This document shows positions 21,183 to 52,637 of a DNA stretch of 64,000 bases, piece after piece. A program made the translations under genes and the position numbers. Numbering within the stretch: position 1 is the first letter of the stretch; every line of letters starts with the position of its first letter. The notes beneath the pieces were generated by a model. The model worked only from the letters and a program-made list of their open reading frames with translations. It did no database searches and had not been told where the DNA came from. The stretch lies in the NCBI RefSeq assembly GCF_058153355.1, contig NZ_CM177019.1. One strand, 5' to 3'.

Positions 21183-21490
21183 AAGCTGCTCCCGGGCTTG
21201 CAAAAGCCCATGTCCATATTTTTGATGGAGGAAACAATAGGCAATCGCAGGCGGAGCAAACAGTGGATAAAAAGGCCATTTACTGGACTTTTGTAATATC
21301 AGTACAAAAATGCGATCCGCCTCATAACTTGCGATAACCCGGAAGCATGCCGCAGAACGGCGTCTTGTGAGACGCGTCGCAAATTGACGGTTACATTACA
21401 TTTGTCCAGCTTTTGGCAGATTTGTCACATGGCAGGCCGTTGCCGTGCGCTCTTATCCTGTAAACAGAGAACCGTACCGGGAGAGAGGCA

Positions 21491-32440: not shown

Positions 32441-33952
32441 TTGCTTAACGCAAGGAATAAAAACGTATTGATGAACACTGGGAATTTCGAGTCGATACAA
32501 ATCATGATCGACGCGCAAGAGTGGCGTAGCCTGCCGCTGCATCTGCGTCTGTATCACGCTTTTCGCCAATTGGTGATTTCCGGCGCATTGTCTGATGGCG
32601 CAAAACTGCCTTCCGCTCGCGCACTGGCCCAGCAACTTGGTCTTTCCAGAGATACCATCGAAAATGCCTATTCCCAGCTCCACCGCGACGGTTTTATGGC
32701 TCGCAGGCAGGGGGCCGGGAGTTTCGCCAGCCGCCAGGGGATACCGCATATTCAGGGCCAGCATGCGCAACCACCCTCGCCCGGACAAGTACCGGCTTTA
32801 AGCGCTCGCTGGCAGCCAATTGCCGATCGCGCAGTCTCTTTCGATGCCCGCCAGATGCAGACCTTTACGCTTGGCCTGCCGGAAACGCGAAACTTCCCGC
32901 TAAACATTTGGCAGAACTTTTCCCGCCAGATCCAACGTGAGCAGGCACATACGCTGATGTTAAATAGCGATCCGCAGGGCGAGCCACAGCTGCGCCAGCA
33001 AATTGCGCATTACCTTAATTTTGAACGCGGCGCGAAGGTAGATGCCGGGCAGATTGTGATTGTCAGCGGCGCACGGCAGGCGTTCTGGCTGTGCGGGCAA
33101 CTGCTGGCAGAGGCCGGACAGTCGGTGGCGATGGAAAATCCGGGCTATCCCGGCGCGCGTCAGGCGTTTTCTGCCGCACAGCTTAATCTTCTTCCCGTTG
33201 AAGTGGATGACGCCGGGATCCGGGTGGATAAACTGCCGCCCGCGCCGCTGGTTTACGTCACGCCCTCGCACCAGTTTCCTTCCGGTCATTTGCTCACGCT
33301 GGCGCGGCGTCATGCCCTGATTGCCTGGGCGCAGGCGCACAATGCGTGGATTATCGAAGACGACTACGACAGCGAATTTCACTACACCAGCGCGCCCGTC
33401 GCCTGTCTGCAAGGGTTAGACTGCGAGCAACGCACCCTGTATGTCGGCACTTTCAGCAAAACGCTCTATCCCGGCCTGCGCATCGGTTATCTGGTGGTGC
33501 CGACGTCGCTGGCTGCGCACTTTGCCGCCGCGCGTAATTTGCTTGATGGCGCAACGCCTGCGTTATCCCAACTAACGCTGGCGCGATTTATCGAGTCCGG
33601 TCATTTTGCCGCCCATATTCGCAACATGCGTAGTATGTATGCGGTGCGACAGGGGTGCCTGGCAGAGGCTATTCATCAGCACTTAAGTGAATGGGTCACG
33701 CCAGTGGTGACATCCGGTGGATTGCAAATGCCCTGCTGGCTGCATGGAGGTATTGATGAGCAACAGACGCTGAATGCCGCGCGCCGCGCCGGGTTAAACA
33801 TCGCCGGAATGCGCCAGTTCTGGCTGACGCACCCCGCGCACGCGGGCTGGCTGCTGGGATTCGCCGCCTTTACCCCCTACGAGATTGAACAGGGCGTCAA
33901 GCGTCTGCGGGCTGCATTATGCACTGAAAACGTGCGCCCAGCCGGGTCATAA
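32441..33952 (+). CDS. MocR/GabR-type regulator (GntR HTH fused to a PLP aminotransferase-like domain)
   Basis: 503-aa ORF; N-terminal GntR-like HTH (LPSARALAQQLGLSRDTIENAYSQLHRDGFMARRQGAGSF) followed by a roughly 350-aa aminotransferase class I/II-like region; true start may be an internal Met; GC-rich by eye. Confidence 0.8.
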   Translation: MLNARNKNVLMNTGNFESIQIMIDAQEWRSLPLHLRLYHAFRQLVISGALSDGAKLPSARALAQQLGLSRDTIENAYSQLHRDGFMARRQGAGSFASRQGIPHIQGQHAQPPSPGQVPALSARWQPIADRAVSFDARQMQTFTLGLPETRNFPLNIWQNFSRQIQREQAHTLMLNSDPQGEPQLRQQIAHYLNFERGAKVDAGQIVIVSGARQAFWLCGQLLAEAGQSVAMENPGYPGARQAFSAAQLNLLPVEVDDAGIRVDKLPPAPLVYVTPSHQFPSGHLLTLARRHALIAWAQAHNAWIIEDDYDSEFHYTSAPVACLQGLDCEQRTLYVGTFSKTLYPGLRIGYLVVPTSLAAHFAAARNLLDGATPALSQLTLARFIESGHFAAHIRNMRSMYAVRQGCLAEAIHQHLSEWVTPVVTSGGLQMPCWLHGGIDEQQTLNAARRAGLNIAGMRQFWLTHPAHAGWLLGFAAFTPYEIEQGVKRLRAALCTENVRPAGS

Positions 33953-33956
33953 TCTC

Positions 33957-35003
33957 CTACGGGATGGTGTTGCAGGCAGCGGCAACCTGTTCCAGCGTCT
34001 GGCCTGCGCCAATAAATTCCACCTTATCGCCCGCTGTCGGCGTGACGGAGCTGGCATCGACCATAAAGCTGTCCATACAAACCCGCCCCAATACCGGTAA
34101 CCGCACGCCGCGCCAGCATACGCCCGCCGGAGGACGCATATTTCGCGGAACGCCATCCGCGTAACCCGCGGATATCGTAGCGATACGCAGCGGACGCGTG
34201 GCGGTAATCGTGCTGCCGTAGCCAACTGGCGTTCCCGCCGGGACATCCTGCACGCGCAGAATAGTTAGCGTCAGCGTAAAAGCCGGTTTTAGCGGCCTGG
34301 AAAACCACGGCTGGGCGACGCCAAACAGCGCAATCCCCGGACGGCAGAGATCTTCCCGCCAACCTGGTTGCAAAAACATTCCGCAGGAGTTCGCCAGCGA
34401 AAATCGGCTGCTGGGGAAAACCGTTTTTGCCTGCTGGAATAGCGCGTGTTGCGCCATATTTAACGCATGATCCGGCCTGTCGGCGTTCGCCAGATGGCTG
34501 ATGATATAGTCCGGCGCAGGCCAGTTACGCTCACGAAAAATCGCCGCCAGACGCATCAGTTGTTGCGGCATCATGCCCAGCCGCGACATACCAGAATCGA
34601 GCTGAATCATCACCGCGCTCCGTTGCTGGCGCGTTTCCAGTAACGTAAGCCACGCCATCACCTGGTCTACGGAATTGAGCAATGGCGTGATCTGCTGCGC
34701 GTAACAATACGCCATCGCCTCCGGCATAACCCCATTAAGCACTACCACCATCGCATCAGTGGGCAGGATTTTACGCAACGCCACGCCTTCAGAAAGCTGT
34801 GCGACAAAAAAGATCCGGCAGTTCGCCGCATACAGGGCGGGCGCAATCGCCTCCGCCCCCAGACCATAGGCATTGGCTTTCAACACCGCGCCACATTGCG
34901 CAGGGGCAGCATGGCGGGCCAGCATACGATAATTGTCGACGATGGCGGCGCGATTAACGCACATAACACCGCACGCCGCCTGGATTTCAGTAGAAGTCAT
35001 CAT
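33957..35003 (-). CDS. alanine racemase-family PLP enzyme (amino-acid racemase, specificity unknown)
   Basis: 348-aa ORF; VLKANAYGLG (PLP-lysine motif, cf. VVKANAYGHG in Alr) and SAGYADGVPR (cf. MGYGDGYPR catalytic Tyr region). Confidence 0.8.
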   Translation of the reverse strand: MMTSTEIQAACGVMCVNRAAIVDNYRMLARHAAPAQCGAVLKANAYGLGAEAIAPALYAANCRIFFVAQLSEGVALRKILPTDAMVVVLNGVMPEAMAYCYAQQITPLLNSVDQVMAWLTLLETRQQRSAVMIQLDSGMSRLGMMPQQLMRLAAIFRERNWPAPDYIISHLANADRPDHALNMAQHALFQQAKTVFPSSRFSLANSCGMFLQPGWREDLCRPGIALFGVAQPWFSRPLKPAFTLTLTILRVQDVPAGTPVGYGSTITATRPLRIATISAGYADGVPRNMRPPAGVCWRGVRLPVLGRVCMDSFMVDASSVTPTAGDKVEFIGAGQTLEQVAAACNTIP

Positions 35004-36238
35004 TAATAAGGCAACGGGTAGCGGTTGGTTAGTTGTATTACTTTTTGCTCAATATCGGCGCAAATGTCTGCAATATCTGATGAATTAATGGCGAAAATAA
35101 TTTCACTTATCCAGTCGGCAATCAGCGCAAAGTCATCCGCCTTCATCCCACGCGTGGTGCAGGCCGCGCTGCCAATACGAACGCCGGAGGTAATCAACGG
35201 CGGCTGCGGATCGCCCGGCAGGGTGTTTTTATTGACCGTGATCCCCGCCAGTTCGAGAAAGTACTCCACCTGTGCGCCGGTTAACCCCTGCGGGCGCAGG
35301 TCGATAATCCCCAGATGGCAGTCGGTGCCGTCCGTTAACAGCGTCAGGCCGCGCAGCGCCAGTTGCTGGCACATCGCCTGCGCATTGTCGATAACCTGCC
35401 CGGCATAACGTTTAAATTCCGGTTGTAATGCCTCGCCAAGCGCCACCGCTTTCGCTGCGATAACGTGCATCAACGGCCCGCCCTGCAAACCGGGAAAAAT
35501 GGCACTGTCGATTTTTTTCGCAAGCCTGGCGTCGTTGGTGAGGATCATGCCGCCGCGCGGCCCGCGCAATGTTTTATGCGTGGTGGTGGTGACCACATCA
35601 GCATACGCCAGCGGCGAAGGGAAACAGCCGCCCGCCACCAGCCCGGCAAAGTGCGCCATATCCACCAGCAAAATGGCGTCAACGGCATCGGCAATGCGGC
35701 GAAAACGGGCAAAATCATAGTGACGTGGATAAGCCGATCCTCCGGCAATAATCAACCGCGGGCGCTCACGCAGCGCGATCATCTCGACCTGATCCATATC
35801 AATCAAACCACTGTGCGCATCGACGCCATAGTGAAAAGCGTTAAACCATTTGCCGGATTGATTGACCGGCGAACCGTGCGTGAGATGCCCGCCGCATTGC
35901 AGGCTCATGCCAAGAATTTTGTCGCCGGGTTTCAGCAACGCCAGATGGACCGCCTGATTCGCCTGGCTGCCGGAGTGAGGCTGCACATTGACGTAACGCG
36001 CGCCAAAGAGCTGCTGCGCGCGGGTTATCGCCAGCATCTCAACCTCATCAATAAACTTACAGCCGCCGTAATAGCGATGCTGGTAATAACCTTCGGCGTA
36101 TTTATTGGTTAACACCGACCCCTGCGCCGCGAGAACGGCGGGGCTTACGAAATTCTCCGAGGCAATCAGTTCCAGCGACTGCTGCTGGCGCTGTTGCTCC
36201 TGGTTAATCAATGCAAAAAGTGGATCGTTATTTATCAT
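35003..36238 (-). CDS. serine hydroxymethyltransferase-family PLP enzyme (GlyA paralog)
   Basis: ORF 35003..36304; from [30 protein letters not shown] collinear with E. coli GlyA including [16 protein letters not shown] (PLP lysine); start at the internal Met preceded by gggggaag is more plausible, coordinate +/- a few bases. Confidence 0.85.
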
Positions 36239-36513
36239 GCGCTTCCCCCGCAAATTCATCATGCGATGATTTTCGCAGGGAAAACCTCGTCCGCACCCTG
36301 CCACTTTTTTGGGCAGGTGCAGACCACCTGTATGTCGTATTACTTAAAAGAAGAGAACATCGCTGACAATACCGGTATTAACTCCGAAATGAAGAGGGAA
36401 GAAGGCTCCGGCCATCTCCATGTGCGATTCTGGCTAGTAAAACATCATATTCCAGCTGCTCTTATCCGCCTACGTTATTGCATATACGGATAAGGCAGCC
36501 TCAATACGTACTT

Positions 36514-38067
36514 TTACTTGATATCTTTCACGCGCATACCGTTGATCTGTTCATCCGTGATGGTGTTACCCGCTTTAAAGTAATCAACCACCGCGTGATA
36601 AACGTAATAACCGCCCGTCGTATTGCGCGCTTTACCCTCGGTAAACGCGGTAAAACCATCTCCACCATCAGCAAGGAAACTCTGAGTGGCAATGTGGTAA
36701 ACCGTCGCATCTTCAATCGGTTTGCCATTCAAAGTCAGTGAGATAACCCGCTGACCAACCGGCTTGCTGCTGTCGTACTTCATTTCCAGGCCTTTCGATA
36801 CCTGTAAAACGCCATTACTTAAACTTGCGCCGTGTTCCATCAAACTGCGTAATTGTTTACCCGTGAGTTCCATCGTCACCAGTTCGTTGGGGAACGGGAA
36901 GGTACTGATGACGCCACCCATCGTAATTGCACCCGCCGGGATCTCATTGCGGATACCGCCAGAGTTGGTTAACGCCAACTGGGTATTTTTACCCGCCGCT
37001 GCCAGTAAAGCATCTGCCGCCAGGTTCCCGAGAGAAGCCGATTCACCATAGGCACGTTTTAGTTCAACCGGCGATTGCGCCACCGTTTGCTGCACGACTT
37101 CATCCAGCTTTTTATTCCAACTATCAATCACCTGTTTTGTTTGCGGATCGGGCTTCCACTCGTCGGCGTAAAGGGTTTTAAGCTCGAAGTTTTTCACCGT
37201 AAAAGTGTGCGGCTTCTCTTTGTAGTCCAGTACCAGTTTACCCACATCAATCCCACCGCTGTCAGTGGAGAGGATGAGCGTATTGCCGACTTTAATCGGT
37301 TCCGGCGTACCCACATGTGCATGCCCGGTGATCAAAATATCCAGCCCTTTCACCTGACTTGCCGTCTGAATATCTTTATCCAGTGCGCGGCGCACATCTG
37401 TGCCCCCCATACTGGACTGGCGGGCCGGAACACCTTCGTGAATCAGCGCAACGGTCAAATCAACCTTGCCTTTGAGTTCATCGATATAACGTTGTAGCCA
37501 TTTAATTTCATCACGCGCCTCAATACCCACTCGCGTTGCCGCAGATACCGTATCATTAAAGGCAAATACACCGTGCAAACCAATCACGCCAATTTTCACG
37601 CCGTCTTTTTCAATGATGGTATAGGGCTTATCCCAGAATGATTTACTGCTGTTCTGATAAAAAACATTACCCTGCACAATCGGGAATTTTGCCTGACTCA
37701 ACTGTAATAACGTATTGTCCCAGCCGTGATCAAATTCATGATTACCTATAGTGGCCGCATCGAACGGCATGGTATTCATAATATCGATAATCGCCTTGCC
37801 TTTAGTCAGGCTGCTGATATACGGCCCGGTAAAATAGTCACCCGCATCAAAAAACCAGGTCGCTTTGTTTTTAGCTTTTTCTTGTTTAACAAGCGTAGTG
37901 ATATTTGCCCAGCCGCCAATATCTCGTTTACCGTCAGCAATCCACGGCACTTTATAAGGCTCTACATGTGCATGGAGGTCGTTGGTATAAATGATGGTGA
38001 CATCTTTGGCGCAAGCCCAAAACGGCAGTGTTAATGCGATACCCGCAGCAAGCATTTTAATTTTCAT
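36514..38067 (-). CDS. secreted 5'-nucleotidase / metallophosphoesterase-family protein (UshA-like), paralog 1
   Basis: ORF 36514..38073; signal peptide [20 protein letters not shown]; calcineurin-like motifs NDLHAH, GDYFTG, GNHEFD, ITGHAHV and a C-terminal 5'-nucleotidase-type region; start trimmed to the ATG preceded by a purine-rich SD. Confidence 0.85.
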
Positions 38068-38125
38068 AAACAATCCCTTCCAGTGAGATAAAGGATTGCT
38101 ACATTACGTTCTGAAAGGCTTTTTT

Positions 38126-38143
38126 ATGTGAGAATACTCACAT
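38126..38143. promoter_or_regulatory. 7-4-7 inverted repeat (candidate operator) in the divergent promoter region between the paralog-1 nucleotidase and the zinc-ribbon protein gene
   Basis: atgtgag-aata-ctcacat lies centrally in the 132-bp divergent intergenic region 38068..38199. Confidence 0.4.
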
Positions 38144-38199
38144 CCAGAGGCGATAACTGTAGGACAAAATCAACGACCTTATGAAATCGTTGGTGATAT

Positions 38200-39327
38200 A
38201 TGTCAAATCTGTTTGCGATTAATGTCTGTAAAACGTTCGGTTGTCGAAATTTGGGATTGGCCTCATCGGAAGATTACAGTTGGCCAGACTATAAACTGGG
38301 TTTTCCGGCACTGCACTGCCAGGCATGCGGAAGTTACCCCCCTTTGTTTGATGAACAACAATTTCGTGACTGGTTGTCAGTTCACATGACTGCGTGTGCC
38401 ATAGAAACAGGGCATTTTTGTCCATCATGCTATTGTAAAGAAAAGATTTTTTATGGCCACAACCCGCAGGGAACACAACGCGTTCAATGCCGTTCATGCA
38501 AAAAAGTCTGGACTCCGAAACAGCAGCCAGCAAGAGAAATTACGTATCCCCAGTCCATTGAAACCGTTCAACTGTTCATGCCCTTTCAAGGAGCCAGCGC
38601 AGTACAAAAGCTCTATGTTTTAGTCAGTCTTGACGCCACTCGTGGCAACATCCTTCATCTCTCCACGAATTATACGCAACATCAGACAGGAGACAGTCTG
38701 CGGTACAGTTACAGAGGCAATACAGAACCAACTGAGCACCATAGCGATATTGTGCAGAGGGTAGATATGCGTGAAGCGCAATTCTTGCGCCGGAGCCAGT
38801 TCGATGAAATTCAGTATGGCAGTGCTGTGCTCAAGCGCAACGGCAAGGGAGCCATACTACGCCCGGTTATCACGGCACACGGGCATTTCAGAATACTGAA
38901 AATCCGCTTTCCACATGTCAAAACGCATATCATTTCACACGAATGTTTTCTGAGAGGCGCAATTATTACAGCCTGGGCAGATCAGTTCCGCCAACAACAA
39001 GGCGAACTTTGGTTCGTAGAAGAAGAAATCAGCGACCGTAACGCTGATATTCCCTGGCATTTTCAGGGAACGACATACCATGGTTGGTGGCAAAATCAGT
39101 GGCAACGCTGGGGGCAGGGGAATAACAGCAAGATGGTCTGCCTGCTCACAGGAGTCTCCTTAGAAAGGGGCGCAAATGTTTCTCTGGCAACCAGTCGTTG
39201 CTTTATCACATGGCTGACAGACCAACACGACTTTACCCAAAGCGCGTTATTATCCGCAGGTCGCGTAACGAAAATGCTGACCTCACTGGCGTTAAAATAC
39301 AATGAATCGCTCAATCCATCTTGTTAG
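38200..39327 (+). CDS. hypothetical Cys-rich protein with N-terminal zinc-ribbon(s), possibly transposase-derived DNA-binding protein
   Basis: 375-aa ORF; Cys pairs CKTFGC...CQAC and CPSCYCKEK-x14-RVQCRSCKKVWT resemble the IS1 InsA / IS1595-type zinc ribbon (CPSC...QRYLCSHCRKTWQ); remainder not recognisable; no signal peptide. Confidence 0.45.
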   Translation: MSNLFAINVCKTFGCRNLGLASSEDYSWPDYKLGFPALHCQACGSYPPLFDEQQFRDWLSVHMTACAIETGHFCPSCYCKEKIFYGHNPQGTQRVQCRSCKKVWTPKQQPAREITYPQSIETVQLFMPFQGASAVQKLYVLVSLDATRGNILHLSTNYTQHQTGDSLRYSYRGNTEPTEHHSDIVQRVDMREAQFLRRSQFDEIQYGSAVLKRNGKGAILRPVITAHGHFRILKIRFPHVKTHIISHECFLRGAIITAWADQFRQQQGELWFVEEEISDRNADIPWHFQGTTYHGWWQNQWQRWGQGNNSKMVCLLTGVSLERGANVSLATSRCFITWLTDQHDFTQSALLSAGRVTKMLTSLALKYNESLNPSC

Positions 39328-39556
39328 TCAATACACTCGACAAACGACCATAAATTAATGGGATCACTATTTCTCATTTAATTAAATATATGAATGTATG
39401 ACTGAAAAATATAATCACAGTCAATGTTTAATTAATAACATTATTTGTTACTAAGATCACATAATACTTTCCTGACCTATGCTTACATAAAAATAAGACA
39501 CGGAGTTCCTTTTATTTAAATAATTCAACCAATGTAACAACCCCTATCAAGGAGGG

Positions 39557-41110
39557 ATGATGAGAACTGTATTTACGACTTTATCAGTCATATTCAGCGT
39601 GATGTTTTCTCACAGTATACTAGCTCAGGACGTTACTATTTATTATACGAATGATATTCACGCACATGTCAATCCGGCAAAAATTCCCGCTGTTGATAAG
39701 AACAGACTTGTAGGTGGTATGGCTAATATTGCAGGCATCGTTAATGAAGCGAAGAAAAAAAACAAAGATGTCTTTTTCTTTGATGCAGGCGACTATTTTA
39801 CCGGTCCGTATATCAGTACCCTGACCAAAGGTGAAGCTATTATTGATATCATGAACACCATGCCCTTTGATGCGGTATCCGTTGGTAATCACGAGTTCGA
39901 TCACGGCGTGCCCAATATGGTATCTCAGTTATCAAAAGCAAAATTCCCCATTCTGCTGGGAAATATTTACTACACCGATACAAATAAACCAGTTTGGGAT
40001 CATCCGTGGACCATTATCGAAAAAGATGGTTTAAAGATTGGTGTGATTGGATTGCATGGTGCATTCGCTTTCTATGATACAGTCGCGGCAAAAGCACGTG
40101 AAGGCGTAGAAGCCAGAGACGAAATTAAATATTTAAATAAAGCACTTGCAGAATTAAAAGGTAAAGTCGACATTACCGTTTTGCTAATTCACGAAGGTGT
40201 TCCGGCGCGTCAATCAAGCTTTGGTAGTAAAGATGTGGAGCGGCTACTACAGGCAGATATTGAGACAGCTAAAAAAGTGAATGGTGTTGATGTCTTAATT
40301 ACCGGTCACGCACATGTCGGAACACCGCAACCAATAAAAGTTAATAACACATTAATTGTATCTACCGATGCATACGGCACCGACATCGGAAAACTTGTGC
40401 TTGATTACAATCCGAAAACGAAGAAAATTGATAGTTATAATGGTGAGTTAATCACCATCTTCGCAGATCAATTTAAACCTGACACCATCGTTCAAAATAC
40501 TATCGATAAATGGAGTGCAAAGCTTAACAAAATAACACAGGAAGTTGTCGGCCATTCTCCCGTAGTTTTAACACGTGAGTATGGCAGTTCTTCTTCTACC
40601 GGTAACCTTATTCTTGATGCAATGATGGAAAAAACACCAGATGCCATTGCCGGATTTCAAAATAGCGGTGGGATGCGAGCTGATTTTCCTAAAGGTGATA
40701 TCACGCTGGGAGATGTTATTAGCACATTCCCCTTTAATAATGACCTCATCGAGATGGATTTGACGGGCCGCGATCTCAAATCGTTGATGACGCATGCAAC
40801 CAATCTAACTAACGGTGTGTTACAGGTTTCAAAAAGCGTTGCGGTTGTCTATGACAGCAAAAAACCACTGAACCAACGGTTAATCTCTTTCACCATTAAC
40901 GGCAAACCCGTGGAAGATAATCAAACATATCGTATTGTCACGCACTCCTTTTGTGCCAGTGGTGGTGACGGTTTTGAAGCATTTTTGAATGGAAAAAATG
41001 TGAAGACGATACCGGGAACAACCTCGGCGGAATCTATCATCGATTATTTCAAAAATCATAAACCTGTCACCCCAGACTTAACTAAACGAGTAATGGACGT
41101 CGCCAAATAA
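39557..41110 (+). CDS. secreted 5'-nucleotidase / metallophosphoesterase-family protein, paralog 2
   Basis: 517-aa ORF, AT-rich; signal peptide MMRTVFTTLSVIFSVMFSHSILA; same motif set (NDIHAH, GDYFTG, GNHEFD, ITGHAHV); collinear with paralogs 1 and 3. Confidence 0.85.
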   Translation: MMRTVFTTLSVIFSVMFSHSILAQDVTIYYTNDIHAHVNPAKIPAVDKNRLVGGMANIAGIVNEAKKKNKDVFFFDAGDYFTGPYISTLTKGEAIIDIMNTMPFDAVSVGNHEFDHGVPNMVSQLSKAKFPILLGNIYYTDTNKPVWDHPWTIIEKDGLKIGVIGLHGAFAFYDTVAAKAREGVEARDEIKYLNKALAELKGKVDITVLLIHEGVPARQSSFGSKDVERLLQADIETAKKVNGVDVLITGHAHVGTPQPIKVNNTLIVSTDAYGTDIGKLVLDYNPKTKKIDSYNGELITIFADQFKPDTIVQNTIDKWSAKLNKITQEVVGHSPVVLTREYGSSSSTGNLILDAMMEKTPDAIAGFQNSGGMRADFPKGDITLGDVISTFPFNNDLIEMDLTGRDLKSLMTHATNLTNGVLQVSKSVAVVYDSKKPLNQRLISFTINGKPVEDNQTYRIVTHSFCASGGDGFEAFLNGKNVKTIPGTTSAESIIDYFKNHKPVTPDLTKRVMDVAK

Positions 41111-41144: not shown

Positions 41145-42770
41145 ATGCGAATGAAAACAGTGCAGCGTACTTTACTTGCCGCAACATTGCTGACTATTTT
41201 TTCGGTCTCAGCCATGGCGCAGGATGTCACGATTATTTATACCAATGATCTTCACGCTCATGTGGATTCTTATAAAGTGCCGTATATCGCAGACGGAAAA
41301 CGCGACATTGGCGGCTTTGCCAATATATCTACTTTAGTAAAACAAGAGAAAGCGAAAAATAAAGCCACCTTTTATTTTGATGCTGGAGACTATTTCACCG
41401 GCCCTTATATCAGCAGTCTGACAAAGGGCGAAGCAATAATTGACATTATGAATACCATGCCTTTTGACGCAGTATCAATCGGTAATCATGAGTTTGACCA
41501 TGGCTGGGATAATGCCCTGCGACAATTAAGCAAAGCGAATTTTCCTGTTTTATTGGGCAATGTTTATCATAAAGAGAGTGAGAAACCCTTCTGGAACAAG
41601 CCCTACACCATCCTGGAAAAAGATGGCATCAAGATTGGTATTATTGGGCTACACGGCGTATTTGCATTTAATGATACGGTCTCGGAGCTCTCTCTCCAGG
41701 GACTCGATAATGACAATAATAACCGCTTTGATAAATCTTCCGAGACCCTTAAGAATCAGGGGATTGAAGCACGTGATGAAGTGAAGTATTTGCAGCATTA
41801 TATCGACGAGTTACGTGATAAGGTTGACCTCACTGTGGCGCTGGTTCATGAAGGCGTTCCGGCGCGTCAGTCCAGCATTGGCATTACAGATGTTAGACGC
41901 GCTCTTGATAAAGATATTCAAACCGCTAGCAAGGTGAAAGGATTGGATATTCTGATTACCGGGCATGCCCACGTCGGAACGCCAGAACCAATCAAAGTCG
42001 GCAACACCTTAATCCTTTCAACTGATAGTGGCGGTATCGATATTGGTAAATTAGTCCTTGATGTCAACCCTACAGCTCGTACCCATAAAATGAAGAGCTT
42101 TGAGCTGAAAACAGTTTATGCCGATGAATGGATACCCGATCCAACGACACAAAAAGTTATCAATGGCTGGAATAAAAAACTGGCGGATATTGTACGCCAA
42201 CCAGTGGGTGAATCATCGATTGCATTAACTCGCGCCTATGGTGAGTCATCGCAACTAGGCAACCTGTTTACCGATGCAATGCTTGTCGCTGCTCCGACTG
42301 CACAGATTGCATTGATAAACTCCGGCAGCTTACGTGCGGATATAAATGCAGGCACGATTACCTTTGGCGACATTACCAGTACATTCCCCTTCAAGAATGA
42401 ACTTACTGAAATGGATCTCAGCGGTAAGGATCTGCGTAACCTACTGGAACACGGGGCATCGCTTACCAATGGCATCCTGCAAATGTCAAAAGGCGCAGAA
42501 ATGCGCTATACCCCGCAGAAACCAGTAGGTCAGCGCATAGTATCTTTTAAAATTAATGGTGAAGAGATCGTTGATACGAATATTTACCATGTTGCAACAA
42601 CGACTTTCCTTGCACTGGGGGGCGATGGTTTTCTGGCATTCAAAGAAGGGAAAAATGTTCAGGTCCGCGCCGGAAAAAACATGTCCGATGTCGTGATCGA
42701 TTATTTGAAGAAAGGCCACAAGATTACGCCTGCACAGGTAAATGAAATGCGGGTGGACGTTAGCAAATAA
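41145..42770 (+). CDS. secreted 5'-nucleotidase / metallophosphoesterase-family protein, paralog 3
   Basis: 541-aa ORF; signal peptide MRMKTVQRTLLAATLLTIFSVSAMA; highly similar to paralog 1 but with an extra Asp/Asn-rich insertion of about 25 aa (SELSLQGLDNDNNNRFDKSSETLKNQG). Confidence 0.85.
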   Translation: MRMKTVQRTLLAATLLTIFSVSAMAQDVTIIYTNDLHAHVDSYKVPYIADGKRDIGGFANISTLVKQEKAKNKATFYFDAGDYFTGPYISSLTKGEAIIDIMNTMPFDAVSIGNHEFDHGWDNALRQLSKANFPVLLGNVYHKESEKPFWNKPYTILEKDGIKIGIIGLHGVFAFNDTVSELSLQGLDNDNNNRFDKSSETLKNQGIEARDEVKYLQHYIDELRDKVDLTVALVHEGVPARQSSIGITDVRRALDKDIQTASKVKGLDILITGHAHVGTPEPIKVGNTLILSTDSGGIDIGKLVLDVNPTARTHKMKSFELKTVYADEWIPDPTTQKVINGWNKKLADIVRQPVGESSIALTRAYGESSQLGNLFTDAMLVAAPTAQIALINSGSLRADINAGTITFGDITSTFPFKNELTEMDLSGKDLRNLLEHGASLTNGILQMSKGAEMRYTPQKPVGQRIVSFKINGEEIVDTNIYHVATTTFLALGGDGFLAFKEGKNVQVRAGKNMSDVVIDYLKKGHKITPAQVNEMRVDVSK

Positions 42771-42847: not shown

Positions 42848-43708
42848 ATGTGTATAAAAAAGCACGGGATAGCTTTATCGATTCTATTAATACCTTGCAT
42901 TGGAAACGCTCAGGAAATTAAAAGTGAGGAAGGCTGGTTACATCAAAGCTTGAATGTCATTGGTCGCACAGACTCTCGCTTTGGCCCAAGGCTGACTAAC
43001 GACCTCTACCCTGAATATACTGTAGCAGGAAGAAAAGACTGGTTTGATTTTTATGGTTATGTTGATCTACCAAAATTCTTTGGCGTCGGCAGTCACTATG
43101 ATGTTGGGATCTGGGATGAGGGCTCACCACTATTTACGGAAATAGAACCTCGGTTTTCCATTGACAAATTGACCGGATTAAATCTTGCGTTCGGCCCTTT
43201 TAAAGAATGGTTCATTGCAAACAACTATGTCTATGATATGGGTGACAACCAGTCATCCCGGCAAAGTACATGGTATATGGGGCTTGGTACAGATATCGAC
43301 ACGGGTCTACCAATTAAGCTTTCTGCCAATATATACGCCAAGTATCAGTGGCAAAACTATGGTGCCGCTAATGAAAATGAATGGGACGGATATCGATTCA
43401 AAATAAAATATAGCATTCCTCTTACCCATTTATTCGGAGGGCGATTGGTATACAATAGTTTTACTAACTTTGATTTTGGATCCGATCTTGCGGACAAATC
43501 ACACAATAATAAACGAACCAGTAATGCTATTGCTTCAAGCCATATCCTTTCCCTGCTATATGAACACTGGAAATTTGCATTTACACTACGTTATTTTCAC
43601 AACGGTGGACAATGGAATGCTGGGGAGAAAGTTAACTTCGGAGATGGTCCATTTGAATTAAAAAACACAGGATGGGGAACCTATACTACTATTGGTTATC
43701 AATTTTAA
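42848..43708 (+). CDS. Tsx-family outer-membrane nucleoside-specific channel protein (paralog of tsx)
   Basis: 286-aa ORF, AT-rich; signal peptide then blocks matching E. coli Tsx from memory ([97 protein letters not shown]) and a C-terminal aromatic residue. Confidence 0.85.
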
Positions 43709-51456: not shown

Positions 51457-51611
51457 TGCGCAAACGATGCGAGGCGGATCGAAAAATTCAATATTCATCA
51501 CACTTTTCATGAAAATTCTGTAACCGTTTTCACGCGCTATCTGCTAAAAATGTTGCCGATGTGAAGTAAACATGGAAGTAGTACGCCTGCCGTGCCGGGC
51601 GAGGAGTGAGT

Positions 51612-52637
51612 GTGAAAGCGAAGAAGCAGGAAACTGCCGCGACCATGAAAGACGTTGCCCTGAAGGCAAAAGTCTCTACAGCGACCGTCTCCCGAGCATT
51701 AATGAATCCCGATAAAGTCTCCCAGGCCACCCGTAATCGGGTTGAAAAAGCGGCCCGGGAAGTAGGTTATTTGCCGCAGCCTATGGGGCGCAACGTCAAG
51801 CGTAATGAATCCCGTACCATTCTGGTGATTGTCCCGGATATCTGCGATCCCTTCTTTAGCGAAATTATTCGCGGTATCGAAGTTACGGCGGCAAATCACG
51901 GATATCTGGTGCTGATTGGCGACTGTGCGCATCAAAATCAGCAGGAAAAAACCTTTATCGATTTGATCATCACCAAGCAAATTGATGGCATGTTGCTGCT
52001 GGGTTCAAGGCTGCCGTTTGATGCCAGCATTGAGGAACAGCGTAATCTGCCGCCGATGGTGATGGCGAACGAATTTGCACCGGAACTGGAGCTACCAACA
52101 GTTCATATCGACAATCTGACCGCCGCATTTGATGCAGTAAATTATTTATATGAGCAAGGGCATAAACGGATTGGCTGTATAGCCGGTCCCGAAGAGATGC
52201 CGCTGTGTCACTACCGCCTGCAAGGCTACGTTCAGGCGCTGCGTCGCTGCGGCATTATGGTTGATCCGCAATACATCGCCCGGGGCGACTTCTCCTTTGA
52301 AGCCGGAAGCAAAGCGATGCAACAGCTGCTTGCTCTTCCGCAACCGCCTACTGCTGTCTTCTGCCATAGTGATGTGATGGCGCTCGGCGCACTTTCTCAG
52401 GCAAAACGCCAGGGGCTGAAAGTCCCGGATGATCTGTCCATAATCGGTTTTGATAACATCGACCTGACGCAATTTTGTGATCCGCCGCTGACAACCATCG
52501 CGCAGCCGCGTTACGAAATCGGTCGGGAAGCTATGCTGTTATTGCTTGATCAAATGCAGGGGCAACACGTTGGCAGTGGCTCTCGTTTAATGGACTGCGA
52601 ACTTATCATCCGGGGATCAACACGCGCGTTACCTTAA
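51612..52637 (+). CDS. cytR: LacI-family transcriptional repressor CytR
   Basis: ORF from 51606; MKAKKQETAATMKDVALKAKVSTATVSRALMNPDKVS... (341 aa if started at the GTG two codons in). Confidence 0.93.
   Translation: MKAKKQETAATMKDVALKAKVSTATVSRALMNPDKVSQATRNRVEKAAREVGYLPQPMGRNVKRNESRTILVIVPDICDPFFSEIIRGIEVTAANHGYLVLIGDCAHQNQQEKTFIDLIITKQIDGMLLLGSRLPFDASIEEQRNLPPMVMANEFAPELELPTVHIDNLTAAFDAVNYLYEQGHKRIGCIAGPEEMPLCHYRLQGYVQALRRCGIMVDPQYIARGDFSFEAGSKAMQQLLALPQPPTAVFCHSDVMALGALSQAKRQGLKVPDDLSIIGFDNIDLTQFCDPPLTTIAQPRYEIGREAMLLLLDQMQGQHVGSGSRLMDCELIIRGSTRALP

Follow-up and report, generated by a model that had tools for sequence, protein, structure and literature searches.

The divergent start codons of a nucleotidase gene and a zinc-ribbon gene are separated by an intergenic region of 132 bp (38068-38199; all positions refer to the whole 64-kb stretch of DNA that was analysed, hereafter the window), within which lies a perfect inverted repeat with two 7-bp arms and 4 bp between them (ATGTGAG-AATA-CTCACAT, ATGTGAGAATACTCACAT). 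The question raised by this locus is which protein recognizes this element, if any does, and which of the two flanking genes it serves. In a preliminary description the repeat was placed midway between the two starts and was regarded as a typical operator of a dimeric regulator, either a repressor or an activator. Its sequence and its coordinates (38126-38143) were borne out by a re-reading of the window, as was its central position, the dyad centre at 38134.5 being 67.5 bp from the nucleotidase-1 start and 65.5 bp from the zinc-ribbon start. The ATG of nucleotidase 1 was set at 38067 after the annotated E. coli homologue, which is 99.2% identical. The genes and the element concerned are the following.

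36514..38067, minus strand: nucleotidase 1, a UshA-like metallophosphatase/5'-nucleotidase (Pfam Metallophos and 5_nucleotid_C; E. coli annotation agrees), presumed CRP target
38124..38145, no strand: predicted 22-bp cAMP-CRP site TTATGTGAGAATACTCACATCC, core 38127-38142
38126..38143, no strand: the 7-4-7 palindrome, a minority allele form of the CRP box
38200..39327, plus strand: zinc-ribbon ("cytoplasmic protein") gene, 375 aa, rich in CxxC motifs, two Cys4 ribbons, presumed CRP target

As a bare 7-4-7 palindrome the element is not beyond chance here, the window containing 15 perfect inverted repeats of this form versus 3.5 expected from shuffles. However, when its inner part is divided differently, TGTGAG-AATA-CTCACA becomes TGTGA-GAATAC-TCACA, which is a perfect CRP core (38127-38142) with the canonical 6-bp spacer of the consensus TGTGA-N6-TCACA (PMC3105977). 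The resemblance of the arms to CRP half-sites had been noticed in the preliminary description and is in fact an exact match to the core, but CRP had been set aside there on the ground that a 4-bp spacing does not match the canonical site. This was a miscount made from the arm edge; as 4 bp between 7-bp arms equal 6 bp between 5-bp cores, the spacing is canonical for CRP. The sequence TGTGA-N6-TCACA occurs once in the window versus 0.03 times expected, and any match to it was obtained in only 3 of 100 shuffles. The site is not of the Sxy-dependent CRP-S form (TGCGA-N6-TCGCA), its halves in E. coli being TGTGA and TCACA, and one TGCGA half is present only in Enterobacter alleles.

The site was also scored with a position weight matrix derived from 107 ChIP-seq CRP sites of ETEC H10407 (PMC4287617). 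The window allele has a score of 13.7 bits versus a median of 13.0 bits for the 107 bound sites, 43 of which score higher, and the commoner E. coli allele of the box reaches 15.6 bits, corresponding to the 81st percentile of the matrix sites. The two best matrix matches of the window are this site and a box at 39446-39461, which is part of the same island. Chance would give 0.55 scores of 13.7 bits or more per 64 kb, so that the score by itself does not settle the matter. As a positive control, the sequence TGCGATCCGCCTCATA at 21311-21326 is identical to the ptsA/frwC CRP site identified by ChIP-seq in ETEC H10407 (PMC4287617, Table 1). Neither K-12 nor H10407 carries the island, and it is for the latter reason that the ChIP-seq data of H10407 contain no peak at this locus. 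A search of the literature by locus tag and by topic found nothing on the regulation of the locus.

The conservation of the element was examined in 30 orthologous loci that were recovered by a search with the zinc-ribbon protein and which represent ten genera, viz. Escherichia (coli, albertii, whittamii and unnamed species), Citrobacter, Pseudocitrobacter, Pluralibacter, Silvania, Enterobacter, Klebsiella, Superficieibacter, Kluyvera, and Salmonella, the last of these by Salmonella enterica subsp. arizonae. A nucleotidase gene lies beside the zinc-ribbon gene on the opposite strand in 29 of these loci, and in the remaining one (L013) the contig ends first. In all loci the box is found at a fixed place, 64-74 bp (mostly 65-66 bp) upstream of the zinc-ribbon ATG, and its CRP core is perfect in 22, with one mismatch in 7 and two in 1. 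For the ten columns of the CRP core (28 distinct intergenic sequences) the majority fraction is 0.968 and the entropy 0.15 bit. The corresponding values are 0.62 and 1.22 bit for the six columns of the CRP spacer, of which 14 different versions are present, and 0.597 and 1.32 bit for 142 four-fold degenerate sites of the adjacent nucleotidase gene, which served as the neutral reference. The spacer columns are thus as variable as the neutral four-fold sites, whereas the core is almost invariant. A majority fraction of 0.9 is reached by just 3.5% of the neutral sites, and in 200,000 resamplings no draw of ten neutral columns matched the conservation of the core. The combination of a conserved core with a neutral spacer indicates that selection acts on the bases contacted by CRP and not on those between them.

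The preliminary description had itself proposed conservation in orthologous islands as a check on the palindrome, and the outcome differs for its two aspects, the CRP core being conserved and the 7-4-7 form not. The window allele of the box is found in 89 of 1841 E. coli carrier genomes, and the other 1752 have more divergent alleles, those sampled reading ATGTGA-GAGTAA-TCACAT or ATGTGA-GAGCAA-TCACAT. In every E. coli allele read outside the window type the right arm is ATCACAT and not CTCACAT. The seventh arm pair (G38132/C38137), on which the emphasis on 7-bp arms depended, is accordingly broken in the alleles of about 95% of the E. coli carriers (1752/1841) and in many other genera, with A or T in place of C38137 in most alleles and in several genera, but the 5-bp cores remain intact where this pair is broken.

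Several individual loci deserve mention. In S. arizonae (L033, 5900-6040) codons 1-126 of the zinc-ribbon gene have been deleted together with the adjoining half of the intergenic region, and nucleotidase 1 is retained with a perfect CRP box (TGTGAGAATCCTCACA). In the E. coli strain IH5 (L038) the sequence to the left of the CRP box has been replaced by unrelated fragments (acfD, casA), all of them partial pseudogenes, an arrangement that looks like a scrambled assembly rather than biology. The identity of the nucleotidase 1 protein across genera is 88-99% and that of the zinc-ribbon protein 38-80% (L005-L034); judged from these sequences, either constraint acts very unequally on the two proteins or their histories differ.

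The box is rare, it is identical to the CRP consensus, it matches sites that are bound in vivo, and purifying selection is seen on exactly those of its bases that CRP contacts. We consider it quite likely, on the strength of these sequence comparisons, that 38124-38145 is a functional CRP site controlling at least one of the flanking promoters. It has the features of a canonical and strongly conserved CRP site, of a familiar kind, in an unstudied accessory locus.

This locus belongs to an accessory island of E. coli that is inserted between metF and metL and is present in 1844 of 5426 complete E. coli genomes (about a third), including CFT073 and ATCC 25922. The island has been listed as 'GR 31 metL..metF' in a comparative paper that does not mention its regulation (PMC12928451). 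In one form it consists of the divergent nucleotidase/zinc-ribbon pair alone; in another, seen in CFT073 and ATCC 25922, the pair is accompanied by two more nucleotidases and a Tsx-like channel; and a long form, found in the window and in strain 2013C-4282 (L001), additionally carries a MocR-like regulator, an alanine racemase and a serine hydroxymethyltransferase. The module formed by this MocR-like PLP-dependent regulator and the two enzymes (32441-36304) is limited to the long form among the examined loci, and in 2013C-4282 the serine hydroxymethyltransferase gene has an internal stop. The genes that follow the zinc-ribbon gene in the window are:

39557-41110, plus strand: nucleotidase 2 (Pfam, annotation)
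41145-42770, plus strand: nucleotidase 3 (Pfam, annotation)
42848-43708, plus strand: Tsx-like nucleoside channel (Pfam Channel_Tsx, annotation)

All three nucleotidases and the channel have N-termini resembling signal peptides, and together with the Pfam families this makes the module look like one for the dephosphorylation of nucleotides in the periplasm and the admission of the resulting nucleosides. The interval separating the zinc-ribbon gene from nucleotidase 2 yielded no terminator. In six of the orthologous loci (L012, L014, L015, L028, L030, L034) extra nucleotidase and tsx-like genes are located downstream of nucleotidase 1 and on its strand, and not behind the zinc-ribbon gene. This gene order is that of Enterobacter, some Citrobacter and a second E. 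coli/Escherichia locus, and both types of locus are present together in three genomes. In loci of this order the same CRP box would control the extra genes from the other side, and no strong CRP boxes were found in their internal intergenic regions. The Tsx-like gene of the island in CFT073 (c4894 = C_RS23130, L048) is among the genes of that strain most induced by TosR, its log2 fold change on TosR overexpression being 3.3 (PMC5956150), which shows that this gene has at least one CRP-independent input.

The arrangement of possible promoters around the site was examined next to these gene data. Predicted starts were placed 6-7 bases after each -10 hexamer.

38165..38170, plus strand: predicted -10 CAAAAT of the zinc-ribbon promoter, putative start ~38176, CRP site at about -41.5
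38101..38106, minus strand: predicted -10 TAATGT of the nucleotidase-1 promoter, putative start ~38094, CRP site at about -40.5

Of the 30 sequences, 29 have CAAAAT, CAGAAT or TAACAT on the plus side, always equally far from the CRP centre, and 29 have a TAANNT hexamer (TAATGT, TAAAGT, TAACGT, TAACTT, TAAAAT) on the minus side, again with unchanged spacing. Free drift is seen in the 21 bp that separate the box from the plus-side -10 hexamer. The -10 hexamers of both promoters are weak, and at the -35 positions, which are within the CRP site, the sequence agrees with TTGACA at a single base of six (ATCCAG at 38142-38147 on the plus side, ACATAA on the minus side). A sigma-70 promoter scan of the intergenic region found no complete promoter, which fits with dependence on an activator. 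The predicted starts of the divergent promoters are ~83 bp apart. CRP sites occupied in vivo are most often centred at about -40.5 (PMC4287617). A single CRP site between divergent promoters is known from 11 natural E. coli cases, and model promoters with a shared CRP site were studied by El-Robh and Busby, both as cited in PMC3105977.

These observations suggest the following model, for which we infer from the sequence the positions of the starts, activation as the direction of the effect, and service to both promoters. When glucose is absent and cAMP rises, a CRP dimer would bind to 38124-38145 and bend the DNA, and the bound CRP would bring RNA polymerase to two promoters arranged back to back, each with a weak -10 hexamer and lacking a -35 that could be used. 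The leftward promoter would lead to periplasmic nucleotidase 1, and the rightward one to the zinc-ribbon gene and probably onward to nucleotidases 2 and 3 and the Tsx-like channel. With the site located ~41 bp upstream of each predicted start, the arrangement would be of class II, and its outcome would be catabolite control of a module that scavenges extracellular nucleotides as nucleosides. Genes for periplasmic nucleotidases and for a channel of the Tsx type make biological sense under CRP control, and the ChIP targets of CRP include tsx, cdd, udp, nupC, nupG, and deoC (PMC4287617). That one CRP site activates both promoters in class II fashion is a reading towards which we lean, with somewhat better than even confidence.

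Intergenic conservation outside the box averages 0.80, which is above the neutral 0.60 and is concentrated in two blocks. Other factors must therefore act in this region, and they could dominate its regulation. These blocks, and two further elements in the 229 bp that separate nucleotidase 2 from the zinc-ribbon gene, are:

38105..38118, no strand: conserved block TTACGTTCTGAAAG, between the CRP site and the nucleotidase-1 -10, columns mostly 0.9-1.0
38171..38192, no strand: inverted repeat CAACGA-N10-TCGTTG, over the predicted zinc-ribbon start and 5' UTR
39446..39461, no strand: second CRP-like box TGTTACTAAGATCACA
39522..39538, minus strand: two direct CytR-like octamers, GTTACATT-G-GTTGAATT, beside the nucleotidase-2 start

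The TCTG of the first block is located 17 bp from the core even in relatives that are 38-42% identical. The inverted repeat is contained in the conserved stretch ACAAAATCAACGACC...AAATCGTTGGTG; left-arm changes have no compensating change in the right arm, AAATCGTTGG, which is invariant. The repeat could represent a second operator, and both blocks, placed where repressor operators usually sit, may be operators for another factor. An RNA hairpin formed by CAACGA and TCGTTG was considered and rejected, as it folds no better than shuffles (z = -1.0), and no Rfam families were matched in 37900-39700. In the leader of nucleotidase 1 (38071-38098, minus-strand RNA) the sequence UCUUU could pair with the ribosome-binding AAAGG; this pairing is weak, with 5 conserved pairs, one of them covarying, and a consensus energy of -0.87 kcal/mol. 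The second CRP-like box has the top matrix score of the whole window (14.66 bits) and agrees with the CRP core at 9 of 10 positions. ATCC 25922 has the identical box in a region that is 95% identical as a whole, and this identity therefore carries little information. The paired octamers conform to the CytR octamer motif and its 1-bp spacing (PMC3454398) and overlap the sole sigma-70-like match upstream of nucleotidase 2 (39495-39524); such pairs are expected ~0.03 times per window by chance, a rough value calculated from the 63 octamers with at most one mismatch in the window.

The zinc-ribbon protein encoded beside the site contains two Cys4 ribbons, one of them InsA-like, and a predicted RNase H-like integrase/transposase fold, the prediction being confident (pLDDT 93) with an alignment of 56 sequences and having a pLDDT of 39.6 with 17 close homologues. 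No significant Pfam or NCBIfam assignment was obtained, and matches below the cut-off point to IS1/InsA zinc ribbons. A Foldseek search of the PDB gave no significant match (best E 7e-3), and a sequence-profile search of the PDB gave no match. The eight ribbon cysteines are nearly invariant and the candidate acidic residues are partly conserved, D145 being acidic in 42 and D202 in 48 of 56 sequences. The gene is present in a median of one copy per genome, at a fixed syntenic site across genera. An active insertion sequence of the IS1 type was rejected on these grounds, i.e. its single copy, its fixed site and an acidic triad that is not strictly conserved. Unlike IS1 InsA and DDE transposase/integrase proteins, which it otherwise recalls, this protein is single-copy and syntenic and lies beside nucleoside genes, not at transposon ends. 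It looks like a domesticated transposase-type protein.

Distant relatives of this protein (19-42% identity; loci L039-L047) adjoin nucleoside/nucleotide genes in 6 of the 7 cases examined. Their neighbours include 5'-nucleotidases; a NupC-type transporter with a nucleoside phosphorylase; and a deoB-like gene with a phosphorylase and a nucleoside symporter, NupG-type being among the transporters. All three of the divergent intergenic regions scanned in these relatives contain strong CRP boxes (16.5, 16.7, and 12.8 bits), and none was found in the one tandem nucleotidase arrangement that was scanned. These boxes support CRP control of the zinc-ribbon family, and the company that its members keep suggests, from sequence, a regulatory or sensing role linked to nucleosides. 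Because of the gene neighbourhood of the distant relatives the family can be read as regulators of scavenging. We put forward, as a tentative possibility with the balance against it, that the protein belongs to an undescribed family of transposase-derived DNA-binding proteins and would act beside CRP, through 38105-38118 and 38171-38192, as a regulator or sensor of nucleoside/nucleotide scavenging.

Other readings of the palindrome can be weighed against these data. The frequency of 7-4-7 repeats in the window speaks for a chance palindrome without function, but this explanation has a negligible probability in view of the rarity of the core, its near-invariance at a fixed position in ten genera, and the drift of the adjacent bases at the neutral rate while the core was held. 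It is also very improbable that the element is the operator of a dedicated regulator reading the full 7-bp arms, either the zinc-ribbon protein or a repressor of the LacI type. The seventh pair is not conserved, C38137 being A or T in most alleles and genera; the spacer is free, with its 14 variants, and the conserved bases are exactly those of the CRP core; and LacI-type operators have 0-1 bp between 10-bp halves, a geometry unlike that found here. These facts weigh more with us than the resemblance of the arms TGTGAG/CTCACA to the symmetric lac operator, the perfect symmetry of the window allele over 7 bp, and the presence next door of a gene for a likely DNA-binding protein.

The preliminary description also brought in CytR, for which the gene was said to be within the window, as it is (51606-52637, CytR equivalog, 710 bits), 13 kb away. 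CytR would in this case contact CRP at the palindrome and prevent activation, and cytidine or adenosine would lift the repression. Such a role is consistent with a nucleoside-related cluster that has a tsx-like gene, and every CytR-regulated promoter has at least one CRP site (PMC3454398). However, in the typical cassette two CRP boxes enclose a pair of GTTGCATT-like octamers, and such flanking boxes are present in all known members except cytR itself (PMC3454398), whereas the intergenic region has only one CRP box, the next best having 2 mismatches, overlapping the start codon and not being conserved. There is in addition no CytR octamer with at most one mismatch, and no TTGCAA, in 38050-38215, and the 21 bp that adjoin the box towards the zinc-ribbon gene evolve neutrally. 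An anti-activation cassette of this kind at the palindrome is hence improbable, and if CytR acts anywhere in the island, the octamers at 39522-39538 would be a better candidate. A more serious alternative, which we nevertheless hold to be unlikely, is that CRP binds as proposed but serves one promoter alone, or activates one and hinders the other through its -35 region. It speaks against the two-promoter model, and for this alternative, that polymerases at two class II promoters with a common site exclude each other and cannot be bound together. The retention of the box with nucleotidase 1 alone in S. arizonae points in the same direction, as does one distant relative in which the box is 69.5 bp from a catabolic operon and 201.5 bp from the zinc-ribbon gene. 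In other distant relatives, however, a distance of 66.5-70.5 bp separates the box from the zinc-ribbon start; -10-like hexamers are conserved at class II distance on either side of the site; and single sites working in both directions are documented (PMC3105977). Taken together, the earlier idea that a dimeric regulator, activating or repressing, has its operator in the divergent promoter region of a nucleoside-related cluster has held, and its reliance on 7-bp arms, its appeal to CytR and its dismissal of CRP have not.

The reading of the locus as a CRP target predicts that carbon limitation switches on the dephosphorylation of nucleotides in the periplasm and the entry of nucleosides through a second Tsx-type channel, and such a switch is plausible in the gut or the urinary tract, where extracellular nucleotides are available. 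Regulon databases based upon K-12 cannot list this locus, and its recognition adds a well-supported predicted CRP target to the accessory genome of E. coli and to those of Citrobacter, Klebsiella, Enterobacter and other genera. It also illustrates that a spacer counted from the wrong edge can hide a canonical CRP site. A transposase-like zinc-ribbon family whose members accompany nucleoside genes and CRP boxes is, in our opinion, a more interesting lead than the site itself.

Among known systems, the lac CRP site (TGTGAGTTAGCTCACT), the sequence of which was confirmed upstream of lacZ in 5141 E. coli genomes, has TGTGAG...CTCAC arms and, as in the palindrome, 6 bp between the 5-bp cores. The scores of the two sites on the same matrix are similar (14.5 bits for lac and 13.7 bits for the palindrome). 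The right half of the lac site is imperfect (TCACT) and the site is centred at -61.5, i.e. class I, whereas the palindrome has a perfect core, is predicted to lie at about -41 (class II) and would work in two directions. In the divergent pairs served by a single CRP site, such as araBAD-araC and glpEGR-glpD (PMC3105977), one dimer is accommodated in a short spacer, as is proposed here; the present locus differs from them in that both promoters are predicted to be of class II with starts ~83 bp apart, and in being part of an accessory island that is absent from K-12. The promoters regulated by CytR and CRP (tsx-p2, deoP2, cdd, udp, nupG) place nucleoside scavenging, including a Tsx-type channel, under catabolite control, and the same is proposed for this locus. 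Unlike them, the palindrome is without a tandem CRP pair or CytR octamers, and its putative targets are periplasmic nucleotidases and a transposase-like protein.
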